Source of the DNA: a virus
DNA length: 64,000 bases
Reading direction: 5' to 3' (one strand)
IMG/VR virus record: IMGVR_UViG_3300029237_000366
Below the pieces are notes generated by a model, which was given only the letters and a program-made list of their open reading frames with translations, made no database searches and was not told the DNA's origin. Below are positions 6,996 to 44,525 of the stretch, piece by piece. The translations under genes were made by a program, and so were the position numbers. Numbering within the stretch: the stretch's first letter is position 1; each line of letters begins with the position of its first letter.

Positions 6996-7007
6996 AGGCC
7001 GCCACCT

Positions 7008-7379: not shown

Positions 7380-7382
7380 GTG

Positions 7383-8084: not shown

Positions 8085-8102
8085 AAATAACCTTCTTTCC
8101 TT

Positions 8103-8699: not shown

Positions 8700-8764
8700 T
8701 CTTATATTTTATTTAATTGTGTTGATATATGTAAAGAGAAACCTGCTTGATGCAGGTTCTCTGA

Positions 8765-9286: not shown

Positions 9287-9298
9287 TTTTTCACCGCC

Positions 9299-10249: not shown

Positions 10250-10278
10250 GGCGAACCTCCCGTTAATTGTATGTAGGG

Positions 10279-10716
10279 TTATGCCGGAACGGCAGCATTC
10301 AAGCGGATTGCCTTATGCCAAACGGCAAGCAGCACCTCAGTATCCAGAAAGGAAATAGCGGAGGTAGCGAGGAGATTTGCTGCTGCTATCTGCCGCATAT
10401 AGCGGTTGGACAATGTGGTGATATACTGACCGATGCGTTCTTTCGACATACATTCGGGATTCTCGCACAGAACCATGCTATCCAAGCGAAGGCCACTGTC
10501 AGCCGACTTGATAACAACATGGGTGGGCTGTCCGGCTTTCTTAATGGAACTGGTGATGGGAAGGGCGATGATGTTGGGACTGTGTGCGTTGCCGACATTG
10601 TTCTGAAAAACAACACCGGGGCGCCAGCCATTTTGTTCGCAGCCGCTTCCTCCAAAGTTCATCAGATATACTTCCCCAATTTGAGGGACTCGCTGCTCAT
10701 TATGATGAAAACCCAA
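10279..10716 (-). CDS. MazF/PemK-family mRNA-interferase toxin
   Basis: IGEVYLMNFGGSGCEQNGWRPGVVFQNNVGNAHSPNIIALPITSS...PTHVVI matches the MazF/PemK core; no MazE-like partner is obvious. Confidence 0.7.
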   Translation of the reverse strand: MGFHHNEQRVPQIGEVYLMNFGGSGCEQNGWRPGVVFQNNVGNAHSPNIIALPITSSIKKAGQPTHVVIKSADSGLRLDSMVLCENPECMSKERIGQYITTLSNRYMRQIAAANLLATSAISFLDTEVLLAVWHKAIRLNAAVPA

Positions 10717-10810
10717 GGTACTAACTCCTTCAATTCAATTATGTTGATAGTTGGAGTATAGCATAATGGTGGTTTCAAGTCAAGTCAATTATATAGACAA
10801 CATAAAAAGT

Positions 10811-11155
10811 TTATGAGAAAATAAGGGTGTAGGTTTTCTCAGGCTCCACAGCTTTCATGTTACCGCAGCTTACCGTGAGTATAGTACCCAAAGGATTGGC
10901 GTCGCTATTGATTTCGGCAAATTTTATCCGGTCGATGCACATAGTACTTGTCTCGGACTTTAGGCAAATCAGATTGGGATTTTCGCATATCAACATAATT
11001 GGGAAGGACAATCTGATTTTGCAGGGGTCTGCCACACGATACCATTCCTGATTCTCCGTGCAGAAGAGAACCTGTTGCGGTTTGTTTCGGGAACAGTATT
11101 CCTTCAGTTCCCTCACAGAAACTCTTTTTTTCATCTCGTAGTCAGAAACCTCCAT
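10811..11155 (-). CDS. Hypothetical protein; first gene leftward of the lysogeny switch
   Basis: 114-aa ORF divergent from the repressor gene; no HTH seen. Confidence 0.35.
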   Translation of the reverse strand: MEVSDYEMKKRVSVRELKEYCSRNKPQQVLFCTENQEWYRVADPCKIRLSFPIMLICENPNLICLKSETSTMCIDRIKFAEINSDANPLGTILTVSCGNMKAVEPEKTYTLIFS

Positions 11156-11445
11156 TGATTTATGAGGAAGCCCATGTTATACTACAAGTGGGTCATGATG
11201 AGTGGTGTCGTTATGACCACGGCCTGTAAATCTATGGGCTGCTCGCATACTGTTTTCTTGAGTTTGTGTTCATCGGCAGTATGCAACATGGGATAGTCCG
11301 TCGAAAGGCGGGCTATTCTTTTTCCTATTGACAGAAACATAAGTTTATGCTATCCTGTCAATGCAAACAGTAGTTACGGTGTTAATGCTACCACAAATAA
11401 TGGGTCGTGTCAACAACCAATCTCAAATTACGGAGGATAGTCATC
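11156..11445. promoter_or_regulatory. Divergent promoter/operator region between the early leftward operon and the repressor gene
   Basis: TTGACAG-N20-CTGTCAA inverted repeat overlapping a -35-like TTGACA; GGTCATGA..TTATGACC inverted repeat; GGAGG RBS before the repressor ATG. Confidence 0.4.
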
Positions 11446-12252
11446 ATGGACTTCGGCCAGCGCCTGAAAAATCTGCGTTTGGAGCGCGGATATACACAGC
11501 AGGATTTGAGTTCTGCTGTCGGAGTCTCTACCGTTGCTGTTAGGTCGTGGGAACACAATACGAAAAAGCCGAACATGGACGCCTTGATTGCACTTGGGCG
11601 TTTTTTGAACACATCGATAGATACGCTTCTTGATATTCAGCCGAAAGGGAGCGAACAAAACTACACTTTTATACTTTCTCCCGCAGAGAAACGCTTTCTA
11701 CAGGACTATCGTGAGCTTGATTCCCACGGCAAAAAAATCGTGAACACCGTATGCTCTTTGGAGAAAGAGCGTATTGACCTGGCGGTAAAACCGAAGAACC
11801 GCAGCAAGGTTATCCAGCTTGCAAATACCGAGAGAGAGCGGTATATCCCACGATATACTACACCATCCGCAGCCGGTACATCTGTCCCGCTTGACGGCGC
11901 TGACTTTGAGATGATTCTGGTGGACAACAGTGTCCCAGACGAAGCAGATTACGCCGTAAACATCCAGGGAAACAGTATGTTCCCATATATTCACGATGGC
12001 GACATGGTATATGTGAAAAAGGATGCGGAAATGGCTATCGGCGATGTTGGTATCTTCTGTGTGGATGGCGCAATGTACTGCAAGCAGTACTATGTAGATG
12101 AAAATGGGAATCTTGAGTTAGTATCCGCGAACCCAGAACTTCGTAAAACGAATGTCTTTGTGTCATCGGATAGTGGCAGCTCCGTAAAGTGCTACGGAAA
12201 AGTCCTGATGGGGTTCAAACTGGAACTGCCGGACTATTTGTTTGAGGAGTAA
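11446..12252 (+). CDS. CI/LexA-like repressor (XRE-family HTH plus S24 peptidase domain)
   Basis: N-terminal HTH (LKNLRLERGYTQQDLSSAVGVSTVAVRSWEH) and C-terminal S24 peptidase motifs (GNSMFP...VYVKK). Start placed at the ATG with a GGAGG RBS at 11433-11437, rather than the upstream ATG at 11407. Confidence 0.8.
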   Translation: MDFGQRLKNLRLERGYTQQDLSSAVGVSTVAVRSWEHNTKKPNMDALIALGRFLNTSIDTLLDIQPKGSEQNYTFILSPAEKRFLQDYRELDSHGKKIVNTVCSLEKERIDLAVKPKNRSKVIQLANTERERYIPRYTTPSAAGTSVPLDGADFEMILVDNSVPDEADYAVNIQGNSMFPYIHDGDMVYVKKDAEMAIGDVGIFCVDGAMYCKQYYVDENGNLELVSANPELRKTNVFVSSDSGSSVKCYGKVLMGFKLELPDYLFEE

Positions 12253-12284
12253 AAGAGCAGGGCAATCACGCCCTGCTTTTTTCT

Positions 12285-12515
12285 TTACTGGATAGCAGAC
12301 TGAATGTGGCTTTTTGCGTCGTCGATTTTTTCGAGCGCATCATTCAGACTATCCAATGCGTCTTCCATCTTTTCAAACCGTTCTGTGCTTTGCAGATTTT
12401 CAGGGTAGTTATCAACACAGTCCTGCTCCTTGTCACAAACCCTTTCTACCACAGAAGCGGCATTGCTCAACATATTGAGGGCGTCTCTGAGCTGCCCCCG
12501 TCTTCTATCATCCAC
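12285..12515 (-). CDS. Hypothetical small acidic protein
   Basis: 76-aa ORF convergent with the repressor gene. Confidence 0.35.
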   Translation of the reverse strand: MDDRRRGQLRDALNMLSNAASVVERVCDKEQDCVDNYPENLQSTERFEKMEDALDSLNDALEKIDDAKSHIQSAIQ

Positions 12516-12550
12516 TCAATTCCTCCTATGAAAGCAATTTGCATAGTGAA

Positions 12551-12943
12551 TTAGGCCGCCTGCCACACACCAGCGATATTCATATCGAGCCGCAGAGTAT
12601 CTTCTGCCGCCTTAGAGATAGAGAACGAAGTGACTTCCTGCAAAAGCTTACAGAAACGATTCTCTCTACCGTTTTCCAAAATGACCTCGTCGCAGAAGAT
12701 GCTGATAGTCAGCACTTTGTTATCCATATTGACGCTTGCGTCAATGACGGAGCAATCAATCTCTTCAAAAAGCGCATCGACTTTCTCGCAAGCTCTGCTG
12801 ACTTGCTCGGATTTTTCCGGTGAGACAACAAAAGCCGCACCGAACTCTTTGGAGGCATCCTCAATCAAACCATGCACCGTGTCAAAACAACCTTTGTATT
12901 CCATATTGTCCGCCCCCTTATTCGATTGGTGTTGTGATACCAT
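12551..12943 (-). CDS. Hypothetical protein
   Basis: 130-aa ORF in the co-directional gene string. Confidence 0.35.
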   Translation of the reverse strand: MVSQHQSNKGADNMEYKGCFDTVHGLIEDASKEFGAAFVVSPEKSEQVSRACEKVDALFEEIDCSVIDASVNMDNKVLTISIFCDEVILENGRENRFCKLLQEVTSFSISKAAEDTLRLDMNIAGVWQAA

Positions 12944-13325
12944 GAAAGGTAAATGTCAGCCGAATCCTGTTTTTTGTCAGAGGATAGACCTCTGTATTGC
13001 TGGCAAACTCAGCGGCTCTGGCAAACCATTCCGGATTATCAAAGTCCAACTTCTTTGCCTCGATAGAGACGCTGCCCATTGTCTTGAACGGCTCACACAA
13101 CTTATATGAAAGAACGGCATCCGTTCCTTTTGCGAAATGCTTAAGCACCGAATATACAAACTTCATCTGCTGATGCTTGGGAAGATTGATGATGGTTGTC
13201 TTCATCTCATCATTCATCACCTCATCATAAATGGCATCGACGAAACTGTCGAACGCCGTTTCAATGTCGGCATCAAGCGCATACTGCAAATCCAAATTGT
13301 TATCCATAAAGACCACTCCTTCCAA
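12918..13325 (-). CDS. Hypothetical protein
   Basis: 135-aa ORF overlapping neighbouring genes in operon fashion. Confidence 0.35.
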   Translation of the reverse strand: MEGVVFMDNNLDLQYALDADIETAFDSFVDAIYDEVMNDEMKTTIINLPKHQQMKFVYSVLKHFAKGTDAVLSYKLCEPFKTMGSVSIEAKKLDFDNPEWFARAAEFASNTEVYPLTKNRIRLTFTFHGITTPIE

Positions 13326-13346
13326 TATCTATTATACCATACACAG

Positions 13347-14036
13347 TCAACTGCAGAGATGACAGGTGATTTCCACCTCGCCAACTGCGTTCTCTCCGAG
13401 AATTTGCAGCAGAGAGTTCGCAATCATGTTTGCGTTGATTTTTCCACTAAAAGAAAGAGAGACCTTTTTCATGGACATGGTTTCGTTCTTGTCAGGCGTT
13501 AAGGCGTGAGGTTCCACCAGCTTAGAAGGAGTTGGCGCAGGCTTTACCTCGCCCTTCAAAAAACCACCCCACGCTTCTCGCTGCTCGGCATTCATGGAAT
13601 GCCCAACGGGGAACTTAACCGCAAGACCATTTGCTTGAATAAACCGGCGTATGGTAAGCGGCTGCACATGAAACATAGCTGCCAAGCTGGTCGCATTTGC
13701 CCCGTAAACAGCCAGCAGGTGATTGAGATATTCCTCCTGCGTCGGCTTGGAAACCTCCTTAAAAACCTCCCATGAAGTAGGTTGGTTCAAGTTGATAGAC
13801 AATGTTTTTCCATTCCTTTCTTTCCACTGCTTTTTCGTCAAGCTATCTGACGGAAGAGAACACTTCCGGCTTTTGCTGCCACACTTGCGATGACGAGCCT
13901 GTTGAGCCAACTGCTTCTTTTGCCAGCAATCATAAGTAAAGTCATCCACCGTGTTCCTCCATCCTTTGATATACGCGGAACCTCTCCTCCAATTCTGTCG
14001 GCGACCGCGCTTTTCCAAGCTTGCGAAAGTTACCAT
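13347..14036 (-). CDS. Hypothetical protein with a putative HTH segment
   Basis: ATSLAAMFHVQPLTIRRFIQANGL looks like an HTH. Confidence 0.35.
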   Translation of the reverse strand: MVTFASLEKRGRRQNWRRGSAYIKGWRNTVDDFTYDCWQKKQLAQQARHRKCGSKSRKCSLPSDSLTKKQWKERNGKTLSINLNQPTSWEVFKEVSKPTQEEYLNHLLAVYGANATSLAAMFHVQPLTIRRFIQANGLAVKFPVGHSMNAEQREAWGGFLKGEVKPAPTPSKLVEPHALTPDKNETMSMKKVSLSFSGKINANMIANSLLQILGENAVGEVEITCHLCS

Positions 14037-14149
14037 CTACCAGTTCATACAAGAAATAGAAGTCGCGGCTGTCTTTGCTTGTCAGGATAAAGCGCAGTTC
14101 GTGATGGTTGTCATAGTATCCCACCCACACTCGCTCACCCTTTGGATAT

Positions 14150-15502
14150 TTAGGTTCGCTCAATAAGTTCCACCGCCTTTCGCAGCAAAACATCGTGTTC
14201 GTTGGGAAGCGTATCAAGAATAACTTCCTCCAGCAACTCATGGAGAATGACTCCGATTTGTTTCCCCTGCGGCACACCGAGAGAAATAATATCCTTGCCG
14301 TTGATTGCCAAATCTTTCAAGGAAAAGCATTTTTCCTGCTCAAGTATCTCTGCCATCAGCACGCCAAGTGCCACACACCGCTCGATTCTGGACTCCTGTG
14401 TACCCTCTGCGTGAGCTTTGATATCCGCCATCCTGACATCCAGCAGCTGAGAAAATCTGTGCTCGCCGATTTTGCAGAGCCACCGGCGAACTGTTTTCGT
14501 TGTTGGTTCTATGACGGTATCATGGTACAAAACAAGGTCAAGCACCTCCTGTTTTGTTGCGGTGTCAAAGCGCAGCCGTTCCAGAACGACTTTGGAAATA
14601 TCATAACTATAGTTTCCGTGTCCGTGAAAATGGCCGCCGTTCTCATCCTCGGTATAGCAGCAAGGCTTTCCGATGTCGTGCAGTAGTAGCGATACCTTAA
14701 CAGCGATGTCCTTGCCTGTATAGTTGGAAACTGCATGAGCGATGTGGTCATAAATGGTGTACTGGTGGTATTTGTTGTTCTGGTCAAAACCGATACATGG
14801 TTTCATCTCTGGAATGATAGTCGCAATCACATCAGGATAATCCAGCAGGACGGGAAGGACGCCGTTTCCGAGAAGCAGCTTACAAAGCTCACTGTGAATT
14901 CTTTCCGCAGCAATGTTCGTAAGCCGCCATGCATTATCGTGAATAGCCTGAGCCGTGTTCTTCTCAATCGAAAATCCATAGACAGAAGCAAACCGTAATG
15001 CACGCAGAATGCGAAGTGCGTCTTCACTGAATCGGGCATTCGGATTTCCAACGCATCGGATAATGCCATTCTTCAAATCGTCTACGCCGTGAAAGGGGTC
15101 AATAAGACCGGCACTGTTATACGCCATTGCATTGATGGTAAAGTCTCTGCGGGACAAATCCTGATAAATGCTCTCTGTGAATGTAACAGAATCAGGACGG
15201 CGATTATCTGAGTAATCCCCGTCAATGCGGAAGGTTGTAATTTCGTATTTGCCCGCTCGCTCCATATCCGCTGTAACAGTACCATGCTTCAGCCCTGTAT
15301 CAATCGTCCGGACACTACAACGGTTGAGATGCTCTTTAACCTCCTGCGGTGTAGCGGAGGTACAGATATCCCAATCCTTTGGCTCTCTGCCAAGCAGACT
15401 GTCTCGAACGCAGCCGCCAACGACATAAGCCTCATGATTTTCATAGCGAAGCCCAAGAATAATCGTCTTCGCGCCCTTTGGAATAGAAATCTTATGCATC
15501 AA
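14150..15502 (-). CDS. cca: CCA-adding enzyme (tRNA nucleotidyltransferase) with an HD domain
   Basis: Class II CCA-enzyme head (GGCVRDSLLGREPKDWDICT) followed by RDFTINAMA and an HD motif (LLLHDIGKP). Confidence 0.85.
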   Translation of the reverse strand: MMHKISIPKGAKTIILGLRYENHEAYVVGGCVRDSLLGREPKDWDICTSATPQEVKEHLNRCSVRTIDTGLKHGTVTADMERAGKYEITTFRIDGDYSDNRRPDSVTFTESIYQDLSRRDFTINAMAYNSAGLIDPFHGVDDLKNGIIRCVGNPNARFSEDALRILRALRFASVYGFSIEKNTAQAIHDNAWRLTNIAAERIHSELCKLLLGNGVLPVLLDYPDVIATIIPEMKPCIGFDQNNKYHQYTIYDHIAHAVSNYTGKDIAVKVSLLLHDIGKPCCYTEDENGGHFHGHGNYSYDISKVVLERLRFDTATKQEVLDLVLYHDTVIEPTTKTVRRWLCKIGEHRFSQLLDVRMADIKAHAEGTQESRIERCVALGVLMAEILEQEKCFSLKDLAINGKDIISLGVPQGKQIGVILHELLEEVILDTLPNEHDVLLRKAVELIERT

Positions 15503-16514
15503 GAGACCTCCTGTTCACGCTGACCACGAACTCTTCGACACGCTTCATATCGGGGTGCTCCGGCAGACTTGTGTTCCGCTTTGCATAATCAAGACGCCTT
15601 TCAAAATCCGAAACCATCTCGAAAAACTCTGGATGGTAGGTGCCATCCTCCAGTTGATAGTCTCCTCTGCGGATACTCATAAGAAGAGGCAGGTCGGCGC
15701 CACGATAAGTGATGATGTCACCTTTTTCAAGGATATCCAGACACATCAGATACAGGCGGATGAGATGCATGGCGTGCTTGTTGAGATGATTGTCATCCTT
15801 CTTATGGTTTCTGTGGTTCAACTTTTCATAGGTGCCGACAACATTGGTCAAGTCGTTTAGAATGCTGTTGAACTCTCGCACCGGATACTTTGTAAGATGG
15901 ATGTCTGCAAAAATCTCTCTGTCCAAATCCTCGCGTGAACTCTCAGCCGTGTAAAGAGTGATGCCGCCATTCTCAAAGACCCTATATCTGCTTTCAAACG
16001 CCTTGACAGCACTCTTCATGGAGTTCAGAATGTGTTCTTCCTTCCGTGCTTGCGGAAGTTTATCTCTGGCAAGAGCATTTTCCAGCCGCCGCAGCTGCTG
16101 ATTGGCGTATCCCCCGAAGGAATTCACCGCTCGCTTGGAGAGAAACAGTTTTCTGTTCTCAATCATTTCTCGCCCAATGTCAGTGCAAACCATGTATTGT
16201 TCTGGACGGCAGCCCAGCATCTCAATCGTATTGGGGTTGCAGTTAAGAAGCAAACTTACAAGCTTATTGAATGAGTAGACTGTGGTATCCGTTTCCGTAT
16301 GAACGACCTGTTCAAAATTGGATAGCCCCAACAAATCGGAACGGCTGTTCAAGGCACAACCACGGATATCCACATCAGAGGTTTCAACATTTGTGCCGTA
16401 AGAATAGCTGCCGCCCAGCGTGAGGAAAATGATTTTGTCTTTTAGGTGCTCATTGCTCCTGAGAAACTCATATGCAGGGCTTTGCAGCATTTCTCTGATT
16501 TGTTCTGTGGTCAT
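15492..16514 (-). CDS. Pol-beta-superfamily nucleotidyltransferase
   Basis: The GSYSYGTNVETSDVDIRG motif (GS..h[DE]h[DE]h) is followed by a helical domain; start/stop overlaps with neighbours suggest an operon. Confidence 0.6.
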   Translation of the reverse strand: MTTEQIREMLQSPAYEFLRSNEHLKDKIIFLTLGGSYSYGTNVETSDVDIRGCALNSRSDLLGLSNFEQVVHTETDTTVYSFNKLVSLLLNCNPNTIEMLGCRPEQYMVCTDIGREMIENRKLFLSKRAVNSFGGYANQQLRRLENALARDKLPQARKEEHILNSMKSAVKAFESRYRVFENGGITLYTAESSREDLDREIFADIHLTKYPVREFNSILNDLTNVVGTYEKLNHRNHKKDDNHLNKHAMHLIRLYLMCLDILEKGDIITYRGADLPLLMSIRRGDYQLEDGTYHPEFFEMVSDFERRLDYAKRNTSLPEHPDMKRVEEFVVSVNRRSLDA

Positions 16515-16529
16515 GGCTATTCCTCCTCG

Positions 16530-16784
16530 TTAAACATTCAGGGCAAGAGTATCATACATAGTAAGAATCCCGCCGACAACAGCAAACTCGTATGTGTGGT
16601 AAGCCGCTCCGGGAAGAACCCCATAGTTGTCGCTCTCATCAAAAACATTGAAGACTTGGCAGCGCTCGTCATGTGACAATTCAAGAAACTCTCTGCACTC
16701 TTCTTCCGAATCAAAGGAATACAGCGTAGCTTTTGTTGCCGACTCATCGAAGCCGACATAGCCTGATACAAACAGCTTCTTCAC
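16530..16784 (-). CDS. Hypothetical small protein
   Basis: 84 aa, lies between the nucleotidyltransferase and cysteine desulfurase genes. Confidence 0.3.
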   Translation of the reverse strand: MKKLFVSGYVGFDESATKATLYSFDSEEECREFLELSHDERCQVFNVFDESDNYGVLPGAAYHTYEFAVVGGILTMYDTLALNV

Positions 16785-17983
16785 TTTGCTACCTCGTTTG
16801 CTAATATCTCAATACAGGACGCAATGATATTCGCTGCGTCTACTGCTTCGTCTGCCGTATTCATTCTGGAGAATGAAATTCGGACAGAGCTTCTTGCTTC
16901 ATCTGCTGTCAAACCCATCGCTGTCAGCACATGGCTCGGCTCAGCCTCATGACTGCGGCAAGCGGAACCGGCAGAGATGCAGATGTTTTTTCCGTCGAGC
17001 ATCAGAAGCAAGGTCTGCCCATCAATGCCGAAAAGGCACAGGTTCAGTGTCTTACCTGGATTGAGAACGGACGGGCCGTTTGTATGGACAATATCAGCGT
17101 GTCCATTCTTTTTCAAGGCGTCTGTCAGCGCCATATAAAAACGCTGCTTAAGCGTAGAAACCCAGATACAATCTTCATGAAGACTCTTGGAGGAGATTTC
17201 ACAGGCTGCACCAAAGCCTACTATACCGGCAACATTTTCTGTTCCGCCACGGAGTCCGAATTCCTGCTCCGCACCGCCAAAGATGATGGGTGCCAACATA
17301 CTTTTTTCTTTGGCGAACAGTGCTCCGACACCTTTTGGCCCGTGAATTTTATGAGAAGAAATAGAGAGGAAATCGCACCCGATTTTCTCCACATCAATTG
17401 GATGACAGCCAGCGGCCTGAACACAATCTGTGTGGAACAGGATACCACGCTTCATGCAAATCGTGCCGATTTCTTCAATCGGATTAACGGCGCCGGTCTC
17501 ATTGTTGACATACATAACAGATACCAGCCCTGTCTTTGGGGTAATGGCATCCTCTACGCTCTGTGCGAACACTTTTCCGTCACTATGTGCGGGCAGATAT
17601 TCAATATAAAACTCGTCTTTTATAAGCGAATGAGCTGCTTTCAGAACGGAATCGTGTTCAATAGCAGAAACCAAAATATGCGTCTTTCCGATACTTTTAA
17701 GATATTCCTTTAAGCCCTGAAACACAAGACTATTTGCTTCGCTACCGCCGGAGGTAAACAGAATCTGCTCCGGCTGGGCATTAAGGAACTCAGCTACCTG
17801 AGTTCGTGCCTGTTTAACGGCTTCACCTGCACTGCGTCCAAACTTATAGAGTGTACCAGCATTACCGTACTGAGTAGTCAGATACGGCATCATAGCATCC
17901 AATACACGCTTGTCTATCTGCGTGGTGGCCGCATTATCCAGATAAATCATGTGCGCCACGCTCCTTTCTTTTCTGTGTTGCAT
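16781..17983 (-). CDS. Cysteine desulfurase (NifS/IscS-like, class V aminotransferase)
   Basis: The IYLDNAATT and SISSHKIHGPKGVGALF PLP-lysine motifs, plus a C-terminal Cys loop (SAGSACRS). Confidence 0.85.
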   Translation of the reverse strand: MQHRKERSVAHMIYLDNAATTQIDKRVLDAMMPYLTTQYGNAGTLYKFGRSAGEAVKQARTQVAEFLNAQPEQILFTSGGSEANSLVFQGLKEYLKSIGKTHILVSAIEHDSVLKAAHSLIKDEFYIEYLPAHSDGKVFAQSVEDAITPKTGLVSVMYVNNETGAVNPIEEIGTICMKRGILFHTDCVQAAGCHPIDVEKIGCDFLSISSHKIHGPKGVGALFAKEKSMLAPIIFGGAEQEFGLRGGTENVAGIVGFGAACEISSKSLHEDCIWVSTLKQRFYMALTDALKKNGHADIVHTNGPSVLNPGKTLNLCLFGIDGQTLLLMLDGKNICISAGSACRSHEAEPSHVLTAMGLTADEARSSVRISFSRMNTADEAVDAANIIASCIEILANEVAK

Positions 17984-18011
17984 TGATACAGCCCATCAAG
18001 CAGCTGCAAAA

Positions 18012-18623
18012 CTACTGTGCGGCAGGCGGTTCCGCCGTTTCATTTTTGTAAACAGCTTCAAGCCGCAGGACTTCATCCAGTGTTCGCGGGGTGTAATCCA
18101 TCCACGGCATCATCGAGCCGACATTATACATAAGGCATGGGTGCCCGTATAATTCCTGCATCAGGAAGCGGTCATGCTCCATCATGTTCCACTCAAAAGA
18201 GTTATGAACATGACCGTACAGATGATACCAGCCGTAATAGTGGTTCTTAAAACACGGGATTGGGTAATGACAGAGGACAACCTTACGGTCGGAGTCCTCA
18301 ACCTCCAGATACTCCGTGACCTTGACGAACTTCTTGAGAAACCGCCCATCGCTGCAGCGGTCATGGTTGCCCTTAATCAGAAATACCTGCCCGTTCAACT
18401 GGTTAAGGACAGAAATCGCTTCCTGCATATTGCACCAGAACATATCGCCAAGAACATAGACGGTGTCACCCGGATAAACGGCGGCATTCCATCGCTCAAC
18501 AAGTGCAGCGTTCATGTCCTCAACTGTTTTGAAAGGACGATTATCGAACGCCAGAATGTTATTATGGCCGTAATGCCAATCGGAGATATATAGTTTTCTG
18601 TTAGCTGCTTGCTGCTCGGACAC
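18012..18623 (-). CDS. Calcineurin-like metallophosphoesterase
   Basis: DWHYGH, GDMF and GNHD motifs. Confidence 0.7.
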   Translation of the reverse strand: MSEQQAANRKLYISDWHYGHNNILAFDNRPFKTVEDMNAALVERWNAAVYPGDTVYVLGDMFWCNMQEAISVLNQLNGQVFLIKGNHDRCSDGRFLKKFVKVTEYLEVEDSDRKVVLCHYPIPCFKNHYYGWYHLYGHVHNSFEWNMMEHDRFLMQELYGHPCLMYNVGSMMPWMDYTPRTLDEVLRLEAVYKNETAEPPAAQ

Positions 18624-18897
18624 CGCTTAACACCTCGATTCTATCTGCTGCTTGGAGCAGCACATTTTTAGGAATACGGCAATCATCACCCATCTGCCCA
18701 TTAGGTTGGGCGCTGCCGTACAGCCGAAGCTTTTCTACGAGACCCTTGTCAGGAAACTCATAGCGTTTCAGATACTCCGGTTTGCTGGCTGGGCATTCAT
18801 AGCATGAACGGTTTTCATATACACCACAGCCGCCGCTTTTATAACACTTCATAAAGTCCTCCTTAGAACGGCAGCTGAACACCGGGGTCTGCATCAA
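18601..18897 (-). CDS. Hypothetical Cys-rich protein
   Basis: CYKSGGCGVYENRSCYEC four-Cys cluster. Confidence 0.3.
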   Translation of the reverse strand: MMQTPVFSCRSKEDFMKCYKSGGCGVYENRSCYECPASKPEYLKRYEFPDKGLVEKLRLYGSAQPNGQMGDDCRIPKNVLLQAADRIEVLSGVRAASS

Positions 18898-19165
18898 AAA
18901 TCAGTTTCCTGACGGCGGCGGCAAACTCTTCCTCGTCGATTGCCTGAATATCATCGTAACGCAGGCGTTCAATCAGTTCGTGAACCGCTTTTGTAATGGC
19001 GGTCTCGACAATGATTTCCAAACGGTCAATGCGCTCATTGGCGCTTCCCACCATTCCCTGCATGATATTGTGGTATGCAGCAAGCTCTCGTTTGGATTCC
19101 CTGTTTTTCTCCATCAGTTCGTGAAGCATGATTTCCTGCTGCTGGACTTTCTCTTCCATTGTCAT
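18863..19165 (-). CDS. Hypothetical coiled-coil protein
   Basis: 100-aa ORF in the operon. Confidence 0.3.
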   Translation of the reverse strand: MTMEEKVQQQEIMLHELMEKNRESKRELAAYHNIMQGMVGSANERIDRLEIIVETAITKAVHELIERLRYDDIQAIDEEEFAAAVRKLIFDADPGVQLPF

Positions 19166-19956
19166 AGCCGTCGCTCCACATACTCTCTGTCTTGTGTAAA
19201 GACAGGCGGTTCACGGTCAACGACCCAACGGCTTCTGGAAACCTCCACAGTCGCACCCCCGTTTAATACAGAGACGGCCTCTGTTATCCTTATTTTGATG
19301 CAACAGGAGCCACGCTTGCAATCTGTGGGGAAATCATTCCAGTTGATATTGCGTTCTTTCCAAAGCATATCTTGAATTTTGTTGCAGTTCTTTCCGTGCA
19401 GCTCTCGCTGACTGAAATTCGCCTGTCCAACAGCTTCTATGCTGTTCCGTGTGGCATCCTGCTGACGCCAAATCAGACAGTTGCAGACCTCGTCCAGAGG
19501 AACGGTGAAAGCTCTGGCATCGAACATGGCAGTTTGGAACTTGCGGCGATAAACGGAAAGGTCGAGGCCGCCGTCTTCTTTTTCTGTCTGCTCGGCAAAC
19601 GCCTTATTGAACGCCAGCGTCGCCATTGATGCGGCAATGCTGCACATCTTCTGGACATTATAGCCGAACCATGCATCTGTACGAATAGAGGCGTAATCGG
19701 TCAAAACCAATGTGATTTCATCAGACTGCGTGTATCCGAAGACACAGCCCTGAATGTTAGCACACAGGAAGCGCATGGTATCCTGCATGGCAGACATAAG
19801 AATGCGGTCGAAAGGCTTTCTCATTCCCTTTGTAAAGGTGTGAAAAGCCTTGCCGTCAATACGGATGATGACAGGAACACGACGGGTCAGGTAATTGCGT
19901 GAAACACACTCGTACCGTTTCATCCTGTCGCCCAGCGAATCGCGTTGATTTCCCAT
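19162..19956 (-). CDS. Thg1-like protein (tRNA-His guanylyltransferase family, 3'-5' polymerase)
   Basis: MKRYE..RVPVIIRIDGKAFHTFTKG..KPFD...GYTQSDEITLVL matches the Thg1/TLP N-terminal palm motifs. Confidence 0.7.
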   Translation of the reverse strand: MGNQRDSLGDRMKRYECVSRNYLTRRVPVIIRIDGKAFHTFTKGMRKPFDRILMSAMQDTMRFLCANIQGCVFGYTQSDEITLVLTDYASIRTDAWFGYNVQKMCSIAASMATLAFNKAFAEQTEKEDGGLDLSVYRRKFQTAMFDARAFTVPLDEVCNCLIWRQQDATRNSIEAVGQANFSQRELHGKNCNKIQDMLWKERNINWNDFPTDCKRGSCCIKIRITEAVSVLNGGATVEVSRSRWVVDREPPVFTQDREYVERRL

Positions 19957-20046
19957 AAGCGTACCCTCCTGTAAATGTAGTTTGAAAATTGCTTGACATC
20001 ACGACCATTTGGTCGTAATATATAAGAAAAACACGACCAATCGGTC

Positions 20047-20376
20047 GTGCTGAAAGGAGATATGATTATGATAGATTTTGATATGAACTTTCAAGACACC
20101 TATAAAACTCCCAGTGAAGACCTGTTGAGCAATGGTGAGCAGTGGTTCTTCCTTGAAACCGAAAAAGACATTTTGAAGAATCGGCGTGAGGAGCTCGGAA
20201 TGACCCAGCAGCAGGTGGCAGACGCTGCACACATTCAAGCTCGCCAATATCAGAGACTGGAAAATGGAGAGCGCAATATAAGCGGCGCCAGCATGAGAAT
20301 TGGATTATCTGTATGTGCCGTCCTGAAGCTCGACCCCTATCGCTTTATGCCAGAGTTCCGTTGGAGCAAAGACTAA
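20047..20376 (+). CDS. XRE-family HTH regulator
   Basis: LGMTQQQVADAAHIQARQYQRLENGERNIS HTH segment; the only plus-strand gene in this block. Confidence 0.5.
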   Translation: MLKGDMIMIDFDMNFQDTYKTPSEDLLSNGEQWFFLETEKDILKNRREELGMTQQQVADAAHIQARQYQRLENGERNISGASMRIGLSVCAVLKLDPYRFMPEFRWSKD

Positions 20377-20887
20377 GTGTCTCCAAGAGTGCTTTTTGAG
20401 GGGCGAACTCCCGATAAAGCTCAATCTCTTTTGTGAGCCGTGCCATAATGGCATCTTCTTTAGCATCGTACCTGCCGAGGTAAATCTTCTTACTATTATA
20501 GGTAATACTGGCGACCCACTTTTCTCTCTGCCTATCAAAGAAAACGCCGGAAACGCCAGATGTGTTGGTGATATAGAGGCTGCGGTTTCTGTCGTTCTCT
20601 GACCGCTGACAACAGCGCAGATTCTCTTTTCGATTATCAGCCTTGTTTTTGTTGATATGGTCAACAAACTGGCCCGGCTTTGCGTGCATAACCAGCCGGT
20701 GAAAGCGGACAAACCGCCGTACACCGCAGTAAAAGTAACTGCTGACGAGGTAACCGTCCTTGTCACAATACCAACTGTCGCGTCCCTTTATGAGCGGCAA
20801 GTCCTCCAAATCGAATAAGAACTCGCTTGTCTTTATCCGAAGAACGCCGTATGTGTCGTGAAGTTCAATCTGCATCGCTTCGTCCAA
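20345..20887 (-). CDS. HNH endonuclease with an AP2 DNA-binding domain (homing-endonuclease-like)
   Basis: HNH motif HRLVMH...VDHINKNKADNRKENLR, then AP2 (SGVSGVFFDRQREKWVASITYNSKKIYLGRY). Confidence 0.7.
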   Translation of the reverse strand: MDEAMQIELHDTYGVLRIKTSEFLFDLEDLPLIKGRDSWYCDKDGYLVSSYFYCGVRRFVRFHRLVMHAKPGQFVDHINKNKADNRKENLRCCQRSENDRNRSLYITNTSGVSGVFFDRQREKWVASITYNSKKIYLGRYDAKEDAIMARLTKEIELYREFAPQKALLETLSLCSNGTLA

Positions 20888-21149
20888 GAGTAGCCGGGGG
20901 TTCGGCTAATCGCCTGTCGAGTATTCCTTTTATGGAATCCGCGCTAATTCGAAATGATGTGCATCCAATGCTGTTAAATTTATCTACGATGGCTTCGTCA
21001 ATAAAGTCATCACATTGCCCCTCATCTGGGACTTCAAACCTGCACACTTTTTTGTGTAAGCATTTATCACATAACAATTATCCACACCTCTTCACTGTAA
21101 CCGCTTTCCGCATCGGTCGTTTTTCTAACTCCCTCAACCGATGTGCATA

Positions 21150-21330
21150 AGCATTGGTCGTAAACCAGAACTCACGAGCGTTGCTTGCAATGCGAGTGAG
21201 TAAAAGGAAAACCGCCCGCGTAGCGGGCTTCTGGTTTACGAGCATAGTGCCGAATTCTTACTTTTGCCTTTGGCGAAAAGCTGCTGAAGGAAATATGTAT
21301 AACAGCAAATCTACAAAGCGGTTGGTCGTT
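21150..21330. ncRNA. Divergent copy (R4) of the structured noncoding element family described under 38385-40480
   Basis: ACTTTT-GCCTTTGGCG-AAAAGC hairpin at about 21262-21283, an upstream GC hairpin (GCCCGCGTAGCGGGC), and a downstream AAATCTACAAAGCGGT block shared with the 35740-35860 copy; the region has no credible ORF. Confidence 0.4.
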
Positions 21331-21524
21331 ATTCTTTGTCTGCTGGGAATAGTTTACCATCATGTAGGCAGTCTCTGGCTTTCTGGCTCATTTCAACGAG
21401 GCTGTCCACCAGTTTCTTCAATCCGTCTACGGTACTTTCACCATCGTAATCGCAGCCGATAGCCCAGATATCAAAAAGCCATTCATCCACGCAATCCGGT
21501 TCGCACATCTTGCAGCCGGTTGTT

Positions 21525-21938
21525 TCATCTGTCCAAGTCCTCACGGCATTCCTCCAACTCAAATCCCTTGTGGCAAAAACCGGTTATATCGGAGATATAG
21601 TCAGAGATGGCTTCCTCATCTTCGATGTCGTTGGGAATCGTGATTTCATTTGGCAATTCAACGCCGCCGTCATCCTCCGGGTCAATATCCCACTGAATGT
21701 TGACCGCCTTTCTCTGCGGGCATTCCACTTCGCGCCACTCTCCCTCGCACACCCAAATTTCCGAACCGAAACCACGGTCAAACTCCCATTCGTCAAACAG
21801 CTCTTGGATGGGGGTGGAGATGCGGTCGCTGTCTTCGGGGTCATCATACTGAAGCTCTGTCAACTCACGCATCAAGTCCTGTAAGGAATAACCGTGGTCA
21901 AGCATCCATTGAAGTTGGTACTTCTGGTAATCGGTCAT
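21525..21938 (-). CDS. Highly acidic hypothetical protein
   Basis: 137 aa, rich in D/E. Confidence 0.35.
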   Translation of the reverse strand: MTDYQKYQLQWMLDHGYSLQDLMRELTELQYDDPEDSDRISTPIQELFDEWEFDRGFGSEIWVCEGEWREVECPQRKAVNIQWDIDPEDDGGVELPNEITIPNDIEDEEAISDYISDITGFCHKGFELEECREDLDR

Positions 21939-21948
21939 ATCGAAAGTC

Positions 21949-22398
21949 TCACACTCCTCTTAGCGCGTCGAGAACTGCCTGCGGAACAACCCGCTTTATT
22001 TCCTCGTGAATTGCATTCATCACGACTGCGCCCTTTAAGTACTTCTCAACTTCGGTCTGGGCAAACTGCTTCGTTTTATCTTTACACTCAGCCACCGCCG
22101 CCTGTACGGTTCCCTGAATCAAATCCAGCATCTCCTTGTGCGACATCTGCTCTTTGATGTAAGACTGGACTTCTGCCTTCACCAGCTTGTCGGTCATCGG
22201 CTCAGTGTATCTGCTCTCGTAAAGGCGCCTTGCCCACACTTTGGCGGTATCAGCAACGCATTCCTCAACTTCGTTCTGGAATGCTTCTCGTGCGATTGTC
22301 TTTGCGTAAGCACGCATAGCCTTGATAACCTCCTGTTCAAAGAGGTCTCCGTTTGTAAATTCCAAATCGATTGTTGCTCTGTGCTTCATGAAACTCAC
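21949..22398 (-). CDS. Hypothetical protein
   Basis: 149-aa co-directional ORF. Confidence 0.35.
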   Translation of the reverse strand: MSFMKHRATIDLEFTNGDLFEQEVIKAMRAYAKTIAREAFQNEVEECVADTAKVWARRLYESRYTEPMTDKLVKAEVQSYIKEQMSHKEMLDLIQGTVQAAVAECKDKTKQFAQTEVEKYLKGAVVMNAIHEEIKRVVPQAVLDALRGV

Positions 22399-22410
22399 TC
22401 CTTTCTTCCA

Positions 22411-22722
22411 TCAGCTTAAGCCATCAACAAAATCCCATTCGACATTGTATCGGAACTCAGTACTCAGAATTCCATCCAACAGTTCGTCGATGTACTCCTC
22501 GTCATCCCGGTCTGTCGGGATGGGAATAATCATCTCAAACTCCGGAGCAAAGCAAGACGACTTTACCCAAATTGTTCTTTTCTCCATGTCAAAAACATCC
22601 TTATCGCATATCGGGCAGTACCCGGCAGCTCCATTGGAAGGTATGTTTATATGGTGCCCACATCTTGGACAATGGATGATGCCGCTCATACACATCGACC
22701 TTTCATAAATCGTTTCCCGCAC
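22411..22722 (-). CDS. Zinc-ribbon protein
   Basis: CPRCGH...CPICDK. Confidence 0.35.
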   Translation of the reverse strand: MRETIYERSMCMSGIIHCPRCGHHINIPSNGAAGYCPICDKDVFDMEKRTIWVKSSCFAPEFEMIIPIPTDRDDEEYIDELLDGILSTEFRYNVEWDFVDGLS

Positions 22723-22902
22723 AGTGGACAGTTGCGTATCTCAATGATATCTTGAGTCGTGAAACTGCCATCGTCGTCAAGCACTCTCACCCTCAACATT
22801 CCCTGCCTGTTTACAGCCATCTCAATGCCGCTGTATTCAACGGCTTGGTTCATTGGAACAAAATCATTTGTCCCAGACTCACAGTATGGACATCTCATAG
22901 AA

Positions 22903-23694
22903 TTAACCTTTTATATCTTTCCAGTAGCAGTAGAGACACCCGTGGGGGCATCTCGTCTTATGTTTCAGCAGTTCAGTTTTCCCTGCATAACACATACAGC
23001 CCTTTCGTTGATAGCCAGCCCCGTTTGATTCTGCATCCTCAGAAAATCCAAGCAGATTAAGGTCGTAGTCTGAAATGCAGCCACAGGCAATCGGCTCCGT
23101 AAGACCGGGTTCTGCACAGGACTCAATTCGGAGAACTTTGCCGTTATCCAGCCCTTCCCAGAACTGCTTTGCTTGCCGCAGCATATCGTCCACTTTTGAA
23201 AGCTGTGCTTGGGACGGAGCGAAACCGTTGTCGCCATAGGGAAGCGGCAATCCAGCCTTTTTGAACCGGCTTCTTGCGTGTGGATACATATCAATAACGC
23301 TCACTCTGTAGCGCTGAAATCCCATTTCCATAAAGGAAATCATTGTACGGTATGCAACTGAAAGTCCTTTCTCTGTGGGGATGATGGGGTCGATGCGAAT
23401 GACGATTTTCTCCATCGGGAACCCAGCTTTAACCAGCTCCATAATTGCGGCAAACTCCTCGTATGGAGTTGGTACATTAGGTTCCAAAGCAGAGTGCCCG
23501 TATCCAGTGATTGTTGCATGGACAATGAGTCTGTCTTTGTGTTCAAGAGCGGCATCGAAGAAATCCGGCGACACACACTTCGTAATTAGAACAGCAGCAT
23601 CAACTCTGCCTAATTTCTCGACCCAAGACAAATCAACGCCTGCGTCTCCCGCCTCCGTAATTCCAATTTTGTATAGTGCCATATCACACCTCAC
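22903..23694 (-). CDS. Cys-rich hypothetical protein (possibly DUF1848-like)
   Basis: C-terminal GCMCYAGK..CPHGCLYCYW Cys cluster. Confidence 0.35.
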   Translation of the reverse strand: MRCDMALYKIGITEAGDAGVDLSWVEKLGRVDAAVLITKCVSPDFFDAALEHKDRLIVHATITGYGHSALEPNVPTPYEEFAAIMELVKAGFPMEKIVIRIDPIIPTEKGLSVAYRTMISFMEMGFQRYRVSVIDMYPHARSRFKKAGLPLPYGDNGFAPSQAQLSKVDDMLRQAKQFWEGLDNGKVLRIESCAEPGLTEPIACGCISDYDLNLLGFSEDAESNGAGYQRKGCMCYAGKTELLKHKTRCPHGCLYCYWKDIKG

Positions 23695-25068
23695 TCGCTA
23701 TTTTGCAGCAATTAGCACAGATATTCTCTTTGATTACACTGTTGCGAGCGCCACGAACTTCCGTCCTATTACTTTCAATGAAAATCCCGTGTTCATTTGT
23801 AGTAACCTTTGGGAAGATAATCTCTCCGCAAGATTCGCATATAAAGGTTGCTGACTCAAATGTTTTTAGGAAAAGCTCACACGCTTCAGAAGCCGCTTTA
23901 TCCCACGAAACTTTTCCTTCAAAATAGGGCACAAGAGCATCTGTAATGTTCATAAAGAATCCCTCATCTCGCCTGAGTGTACAACTAAATATTCCCACCA
24001 GATACACTTGCTCATAGTGTGAGTACCAACAAGAGAAAGGCAAGATGTCTTGTTTTTACATTTATGACAAGCCGGTTTCAAAGCCTCGCTTACATCTTCA
24101 AAATCGCATACGAACCACGATTCATCCGAATCAAGGGTTATAAAAATTGAATAACCGCCATCTTGCTTCCGATATAATTCTATTGTCCAGATATCATTCT
24201 GCAATGCAACCGTGTCTGAGTTGCCGATAAACCCGATGCGTTCACGAGTTGCAAGCCATTCATCACGCTCATCCCATCTTGTTATCTCATGCATAAAATC
24301 AGCCTTTCATGTTCTCCAACATTCCTGTTCTTTGTCCCACCACTCAATCTTTCTCGGCCTGTCAATACTGTAGGTTACTCTCAACAGGTAATTGCGACCA
24401 CCACTACGATACGCCTGAAACGCCTCATTCTCATCAAGAGTTGTGATAACGCTGGAGAATGAAGAGCCAGAGCCAAGGATTTCCGGCGTTTCAATGCCGG
24501 TTTCATAATATGTTTTGCTCATCTTCTCAGAAATCATAGTCCAGTACCTGTCTACATTCTGGGCAGGTCTCGAAGAACGGATTTTGGTAGTATCCATCAT
24601 TACATTCGCCGCCGAGGTCGGCACCGCAATTCGGACAGGTATTCGGTGACCACGCCTCACGAATTGGTTTTGTTGGTATGCACTTCTTCATTTCGTTAAT
24701 TGCAAACTCCAATTCTCTTCTGACGGGTTCCCACTGATTTGTTGACAGCATAGACCGAAGAATACTAATACTGTCGAGTGCAGTCTGTATATCATTTTGT
24801 TTCACTTCGTAATCCTCTGTTCATCAATACACCTTGTGGATTTCTTGTCTGACTATCTCGCCTGTAGAATCCATTACCCATGAGTACATTTCTGTCTTCA
24901 CGATATCGCCCTTGCGATAGTTTCCCTGTTCGGGGTAACCAAATGCGCCAGAACCAGCGAACTCATCCGTATAAGTCAGTTGATACTCGTCGCTTCTTAC
25001 CGTTACATACACTATGTAGTGATGTAACGAAAATCTTTTTATTTAATTTCATATCAGCCGCCCTGCCT

Positions 25069-41986: not shown

Positions 41987-41988
41987 TG

Positions 41989-44413: not shown

Positions 44414-44440
44414 AGGAACACCTCTATTCATTTTGTTATA

Positions 44441-44525
44441 TGGTGGGGAATATCGGAGTCGAACCGATATGGTATGCACCAGCGGATTTTAAGTCCGCAG
44501 CGTCTGCCTGTTCCGCCAATTCCCC
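44441..44525 (-). tRNA. tRNA-Leu(TAA)
   Basis: 85 nt: GGGGAAT acceptor, anticodon loop CTTAAAA, long variable arm, ATCGG-TTCGACT-CCGAT T-arm, CCA encoded. Confidence 0.85.

Follow-up and report, generated by a model that had tools for sequence, protein, structure and literature searches.

Within a 64,000-nucleotide stretch of viral DNA (IMG/VR virus record IMGVR_UViG_3300029237_000366; the whole stretch is called the window below), positions 14150–19956 hold the main part of a probable accessory operon centred on three predicted RNA-end nucleotidyltransferases, namely a Thg1-like protein, a protein of the RlaP family and a CCA-adding enzyme. We read this operon, with a probability of roughly 0.65, as a phage tRNA-repair and counter-defence kit of which the cysteine desulfurase encoded in the same cluster is probably not a dedicated component. 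The cluster consists of eight open reading frames (ORFs), all on the minus strand, in the 5′ to 3′ order Thg1-like protein, orf100, orf98, phosphoesterase, cysteine desulfurase, orf84, RlaP and CCA-adding enzyme. A first-pass annotation, made by a model from the letters of the sequence, had described eight tightly packed co-directional genes, and this was borne out, since with Shine-Dalgarno-supported starts the successive junctions measured −4, +10, −23, +61, −4, +15 and −8 nt. Each of the eight genes is preceded by its own ribosome-binding site, and the supported starts coincide with those of independent gene calls on metagenome contigs. All eight genes are under strong purifying selection, with dN/dS values of 0.02–0.23 as compared with three relatives (dS 0.06–0.58), which indicates that the three small ORFs are real, constrained genes. 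The cluster and the window have the same GC content (0.481). Because almost every gene from 664 to 46949 lies on the minus strand, the shared direction of the cluster is not in itself special. All five enzyme families named in the annotation, which had proposed profile searches as a check, passed the Pfam gathering thresholds. Gene structure, family membership, intact catalytic motifs, selective constraint, phage context and the pattern of conservation are established by the analysis.

The first gene of the cluster (19162–19956, minus strand, with AGGAGG before its ATG) encodes a Thg1-like protein (TLP) of 264 amino acids (aa) and of the bacterial type. It matched the Pfam family Thg1 (PF04446) with 108.3 bits against a cut-off of 29.2 and PHROG 4717 with an E-value of 2e-94, the Thg1C domain being weak (19 bits, cut-off 26.3). 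The Bacillus thuringiensis TLP (PDB 4kgk) was matched with an E-value of 2e-66 over residues 6–262 and about 50% identity, and yeast and human Thg1 with only 1e-5 to 2e-6; to judge by these similarities, the phage protein belongs to the bacterial TLP subtype and is far from the eukaryotic Thg1 that adds G-1. The catalytic residues D34 (in RIDGKAF) and D79-E80 (in SDE) align with those of the Bacillus enzyme. The phage protein thus shares with B. thuringiensis TLP (4kgk/4kgm) the catalytic carboxylates and a full-length match, and differs from it in being phage-borne, in carrying two short insertions and in that its activity is predicted. Bacillus TLP repairs 5′-truncated tRNAs by templated 3′-5′ addition, which it prefers over G-1 addition. 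The annotation had considered Thg1-like proteins not commonly described in phages, a view that did not survive the database search: Thg1 homologues were present in 164 GenBank phage records and in most cases annotated under that name, which is also the name of PHROG 4717, and repair was proposed as the role of Thg1 in large viruses in 2010 (PMC2904730) and again in 2021 (PMC7824862).

The gene at 15492–16514 (minus strand, 340 aa) had been annotated as a Pol-beta nucleotidyltransferase, an assignment that we retained and refined to the RNA-repair family RlaP. The protein matched Pfam RlaP (PF10127) with 67.1 bits (cut-off 23) and PHROG 388 with an E-value of 4e-54, and it carries the Pol-beta motif as GGS at residue 34 and DVD at residue 47. 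No chain was matched when the PDB was searched by sequence with this protein. Members of the RlaP family add one or two NMPs to the 3′-OH of damaged RNA before ligation, and they have been proposed to counter RloC-type toxins, which excise a nucleotide after cutting (PMC12776372). RlaP-family homologues were found in 295 GenBank phage records and CCA-adding enzymes in 498. The closest RlaP in GenBank, at 49% identity, was that of Clostridioides phage AR1086-1, a 130 kb Clostridioides difficile phage (L007). The region 6211–23995 of that phage encodes KptA (an RNA 2′-phosphotransferase), RtcB and NrnB near RlaP, which is adjoined by an amidoligase-like protein and a DUF1653 protein; in the 25 kb examined there is no homologue of the CCA-adding, Thg1-like or desulfurase proteins of the window.

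The last gene of the cluster (14150–15499, minus strand; the ORF is open to 15502, with an ATG at 15499) encodes a class II CCA-adding enzyme of 449 aa with a C-terminal HD domain. It matched the Pfam families PolyA_pol (PF01743, 136 bits), PolyA_pol_RNAbd and tRNA_NucTran2_2, and the solved CCA-adding enzymes 6ibp and 1miv with an E-value of 1e-53. Motifs A to D are intact (GGCVRD, DWD, RRDFTINA and EDALRILRALRF). The HD domain, which the annotation had also named, scored above its cut-off (PF01966, 26.4 bits against 22) with a complete residue set (H253, H275-D276 and D328). Against the NCBIfam equivalog NF009814 the protein reached 281.5 bits, below the cut-off of 290, other models lying far below; the family assignment therefore appears clear, and exact equivalence falls short of certification by a near miss. 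In its motifs the protein resembles full CCA-adding enzymes, so that the specificity is a predicted one.

The start of the CCA gene overlaps the RlaP stop by 8 nt, and the two genes are translationally coupled. The same two genes were adjacent and overlapping wherever a related locus contains both, namely in L023-25, L035, L066, L068, L069, L071, L073, L074, L077, L084, L087 and L092, at 59–79% identity, with L065 as an exception in which they lie about 120 nt apart. This overlapping pair is the sole invariant unit of the cluster. In an unrelated phage of the Vequintavirinae, 2 kb separates the RlaP and CCA genes, which share a strand. The phage pair can be compared with the Pseudomonas rtcB-rlaP-rtcA operons (PMC12776372): the family is the same (PF10127) and so is the predicted addition of 1–2 nt to a 3′-OH, whereas the partner of RlaP in the phage is a CCA-adding enzyme instead of RtcB or RtcA. 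That RlaP is invariably coupled to the CCA gene, and that a CCA enzyme is unable to rebuild the discriminator base, together suggest that the phage RlaP may act at the acceptor 3′ end, for example by restoring that base before CCA is added.

The window also encodes enzymes that could join RNA. An Rnl5-type ATP-dependent RNA ligase with an N-terminal OB domain and an adenylyltransferase domain is encoded at 29642–30727 (minus strand; Pfam PHA02142 OB-fold and RNA_ligase, PHROG 968, and Naegleria RNA ligase 5cot with an E-value of 8e-49), and the 3′-phosphate/5′-OH RNA ligase RtcB at 34320–35525 (minus strand; Pfam RtcB 215 bits, PHROG 1075 with an E-value of 4e-142). There are 13 tRNA genes scattered over 36927–63129 (Thr twice, Trp, Leu three times, Ser, Lys, Ala, Asp, Glu, Tyr and Met; ARAGORN and Rfam). 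RtcB, the Rnl-type ligase and the 13 tRNA genes had all been noted before and are present as described. A third gene, at 33031–34323, which had been listed as a 'KxNG ligase' of RNA repair, was dropped from the set, as it matched phage ATP-dependent DNA ligases and not RNA ligases.

The tRNA genes bear directly on whether the enzymes serve repair or maturation, since they might instead add CCA to phage tRNAs and G-1 to a phage tRNA-His. The presence of at least 13 tRNA genes would fit such a role, and Bacillus phage genome papers have suggested that enzymes of this kind 'may modify phage or host tRNAs'. All 13 phage tRNA genes already encode the 3′-CCA, however, so that a CCA-adding enzyme is not needed to mature them, and no tRNA-His gene was found in about 83 kb comprising the window and its flanks of about 18 kb. 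The Thg1 homologue is, moreover, closest to the Bacillus TLP, with its preference for templated 5′ repair. These three observations favour repair over maturation, and we consider maturation highly improbable as the purpose of the operon; of the 'end-repair and maturation' that the annotation had attributed to it, the first part is thus the better supported.

In the reading that we prefer, the three nucleotidyltransferases would jointly restore a tRNA acceptor end that has been damaged or replace nucleotides that have been excised; the activities, the substrates, the order of the steps and the counter-defence purpose that follow are all predicted. The Thg1-like protein would refill missing 5′ nucleotides with the 3′ strand as template, RlaP would add one or two nucleotides to a shortened 3′-OH end, and the CCA enzyme would rebuild the CCA tail. 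Ends blocked by a phosphate (2′,3′-cyclic or 3′-phosphate) could be turned into 3′-OH by the HD domain, the phosphoesterase or both, RtcB and Rnl5 would seal internal breaks, and the phage tRNAs may substitute for tRNAs that are beyond repair. The whole kit would thus counter tRNA-cutting host nucleases. The desulfurase most likely gives sulfur, through host IscU and/or MnmA, for phage iron-sulfur enzymes or tRNA thiolation, and happens to sit in an accessory hot spot.

This purpose, which the annotation had also proposed, agrees with published predictions and with the biochemistry of RlaP (PMC12776372), as well as with that of Bacillus TLP. RNA repair systems have been predicted for jumbo phages by Iyer, Anantharaman, Krishnan, Burroughs and Aravind in 2021 (PMC7824862, section 3.4.9), whose parts list comprises tRNAs, RtcB, Rnl, RlaP, CCA, Thg1 and a calcineurin or HD phosphatase, and whose account is there presented as building on Burroughs and Aravind 2016. 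The tRNAs, RtcB, an RNA ligase, RlaP, the CCA-adding enzyme and Thg1 of that list are all present in the window, and the proposed purpose, the reversal of tRNA cleavage by host second-line immunity, is the same. The cluster is therefore a further example of an already described phage RNA-repair kit and not a new kind of system. It differs from the jumbo-phage systems in that the phage, at about 120 kb, is not a jumbo phage but a temperate, SPbeta-like one of the gut, in that the three end-repair nucleotidyltransferases stand in one tight operon with RlaP and CCA coupled, in that the window yielded neither a polynucleotide kinase nor a HAD phosphatase, and in that a desulfurase, a term with no occurrence in PMC7824862, lies inside the cluster. 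What is particular here is thus the new lineage, the gathering of the genes in a single operon, the overlap of RlaP with CCA and the embedded desulfurase.

Phage T4 offers a further comparison. As summarised in PMC12776372, the T4 Pnkp/Rnl1 pathway heals and then ligates the ends of tRNAs cut by the anticodon nuclease PrrC, and T4 encodes a RlaP-family protein, NrdC.11. The logic is the same, namely a phage-encoded restoration of tRNAs cut by a host defence nuclease. In contrast to T4, the window holds neither a Pnkp-type kinase-phosphatase nor Rnl1, so that sealing would be by RtcB or Rnl5, and the cluster contains nucleotide-restoring enzymes that the T4 pathway, in that summary, does not use.

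Several observations weigh against the repair reading. Literature searches brought up no experimental work on Thg1-like or CCA-adding enzymes of phages, so that the function of these phage enzymes is a prediction everywhere. The RNA ligases lie 10–15 kb from the cluster, outside the operon, and the window was searched in vain for a polynucleotide kinase, 2H, Macro, KptA or archease gene; given this lack of a 5′-kinase or other end-healing gene there, 5′-OH ends would be manageable by RtcB alone. Gene order is fluid in the divergent members of the phage clade (51–79% identity), where Thg1 is often absent beside RlaP-CCA, and among more distant phages (≤69% identity) Thg1 occurred without any other cluster gene within 10 kb in 22 of 30 loci, which means that the tight clustering is lineage-specific and could reflect shared ancestry. 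Broken or fused copies circulate in the metagenome population, so that the cluster genes must be dispensable at least sometimes. Finally, the family of the phosphoesterase occurs in 1550 GenBank phage records of every kind, and its presence therefore says little about RNA repair.

With regard to the genomic setting of these points, no ligase gene lies inside the operon, Rnl5 and RtcB being 10 kb and 15 kb away on the same strand, and in relatives an Rnl gene lies 1.4 kb (L025) and 6.5 kb (L087) from RlaP. Walker A motifs occurred in the window only in DnaB, MrpR and a YonV-like protein, and the Pfam sweeps yielded no kinase family. The annotation had called the operon 'dedicated' to tRNA repair, which we found too strong, as three of the eight products are without an assigned function and the operon continues into unrelated small genes.

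The phosphoesterase gene (18012–18623, minus strand) encodes a calcineurin-type metallophosphoesterase of 203 aa, which matched Pfam Metallophos_2 (29.5 bits, cut-off 27) and Metallophos (28 bits, cut-off 21.5) and PHROG 547 (E-value 1e-43) and carries all five motifs, DxH (as DWH), GD, GNHD, H (in HYP) and GHxH (as GHVH). Its only clear structural relative was the uncharacterised Aquifex protein aq_1665 (PDB 1xm7, E-value 4e-9); a PDB sequence search at E ≤ 0.1 returned aq_1665 and GpdQ-type phosphohydrolases only, with no Pnkp or lambda-phosphatase. The earlier suggestion that it is a phosphatase of the Clostridium-type Pnkp kind thus lacks a detectable sequence match. With C. thermocellum Pnkp/Hen1 the protein has in common the calcineurin-superfamily phosphoesterase fold, and it differs in being a stand-alone protein of 203 aa with no fused kinase or adenylyltransferase domain; Hen1 was not found in the window. 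We infer that the enzyme may clear 3′-phosphate or 2′,3′-cyclic phosphate from RNA ends. A second metallophosphoesterase is encoded at 37627–38328, and a PDB sequence search with it gave no match.

The gene at 16781–17950 (minus strand; the ORF is open to 17983) encodes a cysteine desulfurase of class I (IscS/NifS type) with 389 aa, the start at 17950 being supported by AAAGGAG before the ATG and by database homologues of 385–390 aa. It matched Pfam Aminotran_5 (PF00266) with 275.7 bits and the NFS1 and IscS structures with E-values of 1e-70 to 5e-81, and it keeps the pyridoxal phosphate (PLP) lysine (SSHKIHG) and the catalytic cysteine loop (SAGSAC). All NCBIfam equivalog scores were below their cut-offs (NifS 390 against 530.75, DndA 349 against 480, IscS 326–330 against 548–643). 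Bacterial genes showed at most 47% identity to the desulfurase, as compared with 51–97% in a large phage clade of its own on contigs of up to 130 kb, from which we conclude that the genes have long been phage-borne and are not recent host copies. The nearest bacterial relatives (43–47% identity) stand in iscS-iscU(-mnmA) clusters of Oscillospiraceae and Ruminococcus. As compared with these clostridial housekeeping clusters the enzyme type, the PLP lysine and the catalytic cysteine loop are the same, whereas the phage gene is at 43–47% identity and has no IscU or MnmA partner in the window. GenBank 'phage' matches to the desulfurase, which were uncultured fecal contigs and fragments of Listeria, Enterococcus and Staphylococcus, were discarded, as they share nothing else with the window and are probably bacterial DNA.

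Within the phage clade the desulfurase gene belongs to the core, and it is the constant element among the related loci. It was retained at 51–67% identity in eight relatives that have no RlaP, CCA or Thg1 gene within 10 kb (L070, L072, L075, L076, L078, L081, L093 and L094), which makes its link to tRNA repair weak. No MnmA-, ThiI- or TtcA-like candidate for a thiouridylase or PP-loop partner was found in the window and 54 related loci; the PP-loop proteins in the related loci include NAD synthases and a PAPS-reductase-type protein. The phage does encode candidate iron-sulfur clients, namely a 176-aa gene after NrdD, presumed to be the NrdG activase, and a DUF1848 protein (22903–23694, minus strand) with a C-terminal CX3CX2C motif, possibly an iron-sulfur enzyme, whose gene is kept in several relatives near the desulfurase region; a literature search on DUF1848 found no functional account. 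Given the iscS-iscU(-mnmA) relatives, these clients and the lack of a thiouridylase nearby, the desulfurase is most likely a general sulfur donor. The annotation was right about the NifS/IscS type, and the tie to tRNA repair that it had drawn is weak.

These findings also give substance to the strongest rival, in which the region is a mosaic accessory island where only the three nucleotidyltransferases are tRNA-related, the desulfurase feeds iron-sulfur clusters (the anaerobic ribonucleotide reductase activase and DUF1848) and the phosphoesterase, an unrelated neighbour like the desulfurase, acts on nucleotides, second messengers or DNA ends. We give this just short of an even chance. In its favour, besides the eight relatives, the want of a thiouridylase near the desulfurase in the 54 loci, and the presence of NrdD, its downstream 176-aa gene and DUF1848 in the same phage, the phages of Prevotella, Caulobacter and Bacillus in which Thg1, RlaP and CCA occur lack the desulfurase, and the phosphoesterase has a weak NCBIfam match to PdeM, a DNA-damage-response enzyme. 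Against it, the phosphoesterase and the desulfurase adjoin each other and RlaP-CCA or Thg1 in many divergent relatives, all the genes share one tightly packed transcription unit here, and calcineurin-type phosphatases are listed among the RNA end-healing enzymes of jumbo phages (PMC7824862).

Two further roles for the desulfurase were weighed. In the first, the operon would be a machine for both repair and re-modification, in which RlaP, CCA and Thg1-like enzymes rebuild both acceptor strands and the desulfurase, with the phosphoesterase, re-thiolates tRNAs (s2U34 or s4U8) with the help of host MnmA or ThiI, acting on nucleotide-replaced tRNAs or the phage's own Lys and Glu tRNAs. We regard this as decidedly unlikely; if true, it would be the first known RNA-repair module to restore base modification as well as the backbone. 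In the second, the desulfurase would belong to a DNA phosphorothioation (Dnd or Ssp) system guarding the phage genome. The PADLOC models DndA and SspA scored 418 bits and NCBIfam DndA 349 bits, and L084 has a PAPS-reductase-type gene 5.7 kb away. Such models pick up any IscS-type desulfurase, however, the NCBIfam score is below its cut-off of 480, and the window holds no homologue of DndC, DndD, DndE, SspB, SspC or SspD and no PP-loop protein, which leaves phosphorothioation extremely unlikely.

Among IMG/VR viral contigs, 40 carried a relative of the Thg1-like protein and 34 a relative of the desulfurase. The identical eight-gene order was present in ten contigs at 94–97% identity, and in the wider clade Thg1 was present in only some members. 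The phosphoesterase gene often lies just upstream of the desulfurase gene, often with an orf100 homologue before it. In unrelated phage groups, including jumbo phages, the three nucleotidyltransferases co-occur: GenBank holds Thg1, RlaP and CCA in 15, 15 and 15 Prevotella phage records and in 13, 11 and 13 Caulobacter phage records, respectively. A megablast search of the cluster against GenBank phages gave 0 matches; there is therefore no close annotated relative among them.

Immediately upstream of Thg1 in relatives lie NAD+ salvage genes (nicotinamidase, a phosphoribosyltransferase-domain protein, NAMPT and NAD synthase), as at 4050–9132 of L079, with similar ORFs in L023-25, L035, L038 and L080-86, and in Bacillus phage FADO (L008, 3409–5776) Prs and NAMPT genes lie 2–4 kb from the Thg1 gene. 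This neighbourhood points to the region being a counter-defence island. Decayed copies of the cluster in the metagenome population include a broken phosphoesterase gene, a split CCA gene and fusions (L002, 11364–11945; L091, 1–680), so that in some population members the phosphoesterase, RlaP, desulfurase or CCA genes are hit. Proteins that join the phosphoesterase to the desulfurase (P0019, P0020) and the desulfurase to RlaP (P0011) were considered as functional fusions and rejected, as they are in-frame deletions that lack essential parts of one partner; the former is joined at an 'MMP' microhomology, and in P0011 the desulfurase is joined to the C-terminal half of RlaP.

The window derives from an SPbeta-like temperate phage of about 119–126 kb, an assignment based on a YonO-like single-subunit, two-barrel RNA polymerase (57685–60288, plus strand, with a Pfam match to RdRP, the eukaryotic RNA-dependent RNA polymerase family), on the preceding gene for a protein with a YonV C-terminal domain, and on the flanking genes, YonG, terminase, YonD and YonB lying just right of the window. 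The nucleotide-metabolism genes ThyX, dNMP kinase and NrdD lie just left of it, and the window itself encodes DNA polymerase III alpha, DnaG, DnaB, a PD-(D/E)XK nuclease, ERF, an MrpR-like recombinase and two tyrosine integrases. Contigs in the metagenome collection that bear proteins identical to those of the window measure 117–126 kb. The exact Thg1-like protein was found there in 107 blocks, none of them above 200 kb, and other phage genes occurred occasionally on contigs of 0.2–1 Mb (few occurrences). The phage is abundant in gut metagenomes. The first-pass annotation had allowed that the genes might be host-derived housekeeping copies; with the SPbeta-type terminase and Yon genes and the 40 IMG/VR contigs, we found them in a phage context. 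Oscillospiraceae and Ruminococcus are the sources of the nearest bacterial desulfurases, and related phage contigs were binned with genomes of Oscillospiraceae, Ruminococcus and Acutalibacteraceae, from which the host among the gut Clostridia is probably, on weak grounds, a member of the Oscillospirales.

As for the extent of the operon, five small, apparently co-transcribed ORFs follow on the minus strand (13942–14163, 13347–13949, 12918–13307, 12551–12903 and 12285–12515, from gene calls on L001-L006 and L090). None of them had a Pfam match, they are kept as a block across the phage clade, and their homologues come after the CCA gene or the desulfurase gene in L065, L075, L081 and L084. A terminator-like hairpin at 12256–12277 (minus strand; nine pairs, six of them G-C, followed by a T-run; a consensus match only) comes next, and the transcription unit probably runs past 14150 through the five ORFs to this hairpin. 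We infer an operon of about 13 genes of which the eight-gene cluster is the promoter-proximal part, its boundaries being drawn from promoter and terminator scans that were only about 2-fold above the shuffled expectation. Upstream, between the Thg1 start and a divergent gene for an Xre-family helix-turn-helix (HTH) protein, lie two palindromes ACGACC-N4-GGTCGT (20033–20048 and 20001–20016), overlapped by promoter-like hexamers on both strands. The first palindrome together with a T-run scored as terminator-like, so that the pair may serve as operators, or the first copy as a terminator. The Xre-family protein (20047–20376, plus strand, 102–109 aa; PHROG transcriptional regulator matches, and Pfam HTH_3 in L001-L006) is a candidate local regulator of the cluster.

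This arrangement raises the question of when the operon would be expressed. It might be expressed from the prophage under the Xre-type regulator and shield the tRNAs of the lysogen, rather than serve lytic growth. The toxins in question would be competitors' tRNases (of the colicin or contact-dependent inhibition type) or the PemK/MazF-family toxin of the phage itself. The divergent HTH gene and the two palindromes fit this possibility, as do the toxin gene at 10279–10716 and the temperate character of the phage, seen in its two tyrosine integrases, in the few occurrences on contigs of 0.2–1 Mb and in a LexA-like repressor (11407–12252, plus strand) that adjoins the terminator-like hairpin of the operon back to back. 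The operon lies, however, inside a long co-directional block with replication genes, as is typical of lytic early or middle genes, and we consider such a lysogenic role unlikely.

Should the repair prediction prove correct, a compact set of enzymes for repairing tRNAs at both ends would be carried by widespread temperate phages of human-gut Clostridia, and tRNA-targeting defences or toxins would be a major selective force in the gut ecosystem. The compact operon, and the RlaP-CCA pair in particular, provides a testable hypothesis for the natural substrates of the bacterial-type Thg1-like and RlaP families, for which better experimental systems exist in those culturable phages of Bacillus, Staphylococcus and Caulobacter that encode the same enzymes. 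In phage genome papers, genes of these kinds have been annotated for years, and since the concept has been published for jumbo phages and culturable phages carry the same enzymes, the added value of the present cluster is incremental.

The three small proteins of the cluster had no family match in Pfam, NCBIfam or PHROG. The start of orf100 (18863–19165, minus strand, 100 aa, dN/dS 0.02–0.04) overlaps the Thg1 stop (ATGA), and in L071, L073, L076, L087 and L092 the phosphoesterase gene is immediately preceded by a homologue at 43% identity. The next gene, orf98 (18601–18852, minus strand, dN/dS 0.07–0.18), is open to 18897 and probably encodes 83 aa, with AAGGAGG before the ATG at 18852; this is the form called on metagenome contigs. 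It has four cysteines, spaced C-x5-C-x8-C-x2-C. The GTG start of orf84 (16530–16784, minus strand, 84 aa, dN/dS 0.06–0.18) overlaps the desulfurase stop, and its homologues in L074 and L078 do not adjoin the desulfurase gene. AlphaFold2 single-sequence models reached a pLDDT of 51 for orf84 and 43 for orf98, too poor for use of the fold.

Some further features of the window were recorded. The PemK/MazF-family endoribonuclease toxin gene is on the minus strand and encodes 145 aa (the identical gene in L001 matches Pfam PemK_toxin); a 114-aa ORF upstream of it is a candidate antitoxin, and this gene for an RNA-cutting toxin lies only a few kb from the RNA-repair genes of the phage. A retron-type reverse transcriptase is encoded at 38965–40122 (minus strand; PADLOC RT_II-A 160 bits, E-value 2e-47; Pfam RVT_1), between the second metallophosphoesterase gene and an Ig/Hoc-like ORF and near tRNA genes, and its homologues (58–60% identity) adjoin a ThiF-like gene in the distant relatives L093 and L094. 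In the window, a block at 41309–44479 contains a ThiF/E1-like adenylyltransferase gene (41309–41986, minus strand) followed by a 322-aa ORF with a weak JAB match and a 509-aa ORF with no match, which could together be a ubiquitin-like conjugation set or a Cap2/Cap3-like set. Two orphan structured-RNA families, RAGATH-4 (52704–52838, minus strand, 111.9 bits) and RAGATH-16 (53015–53086, minus strand, 95.6 bits), both above the gathering score, adjoin each other upstream of a LuxR/sigma-70 region 4-like gene.

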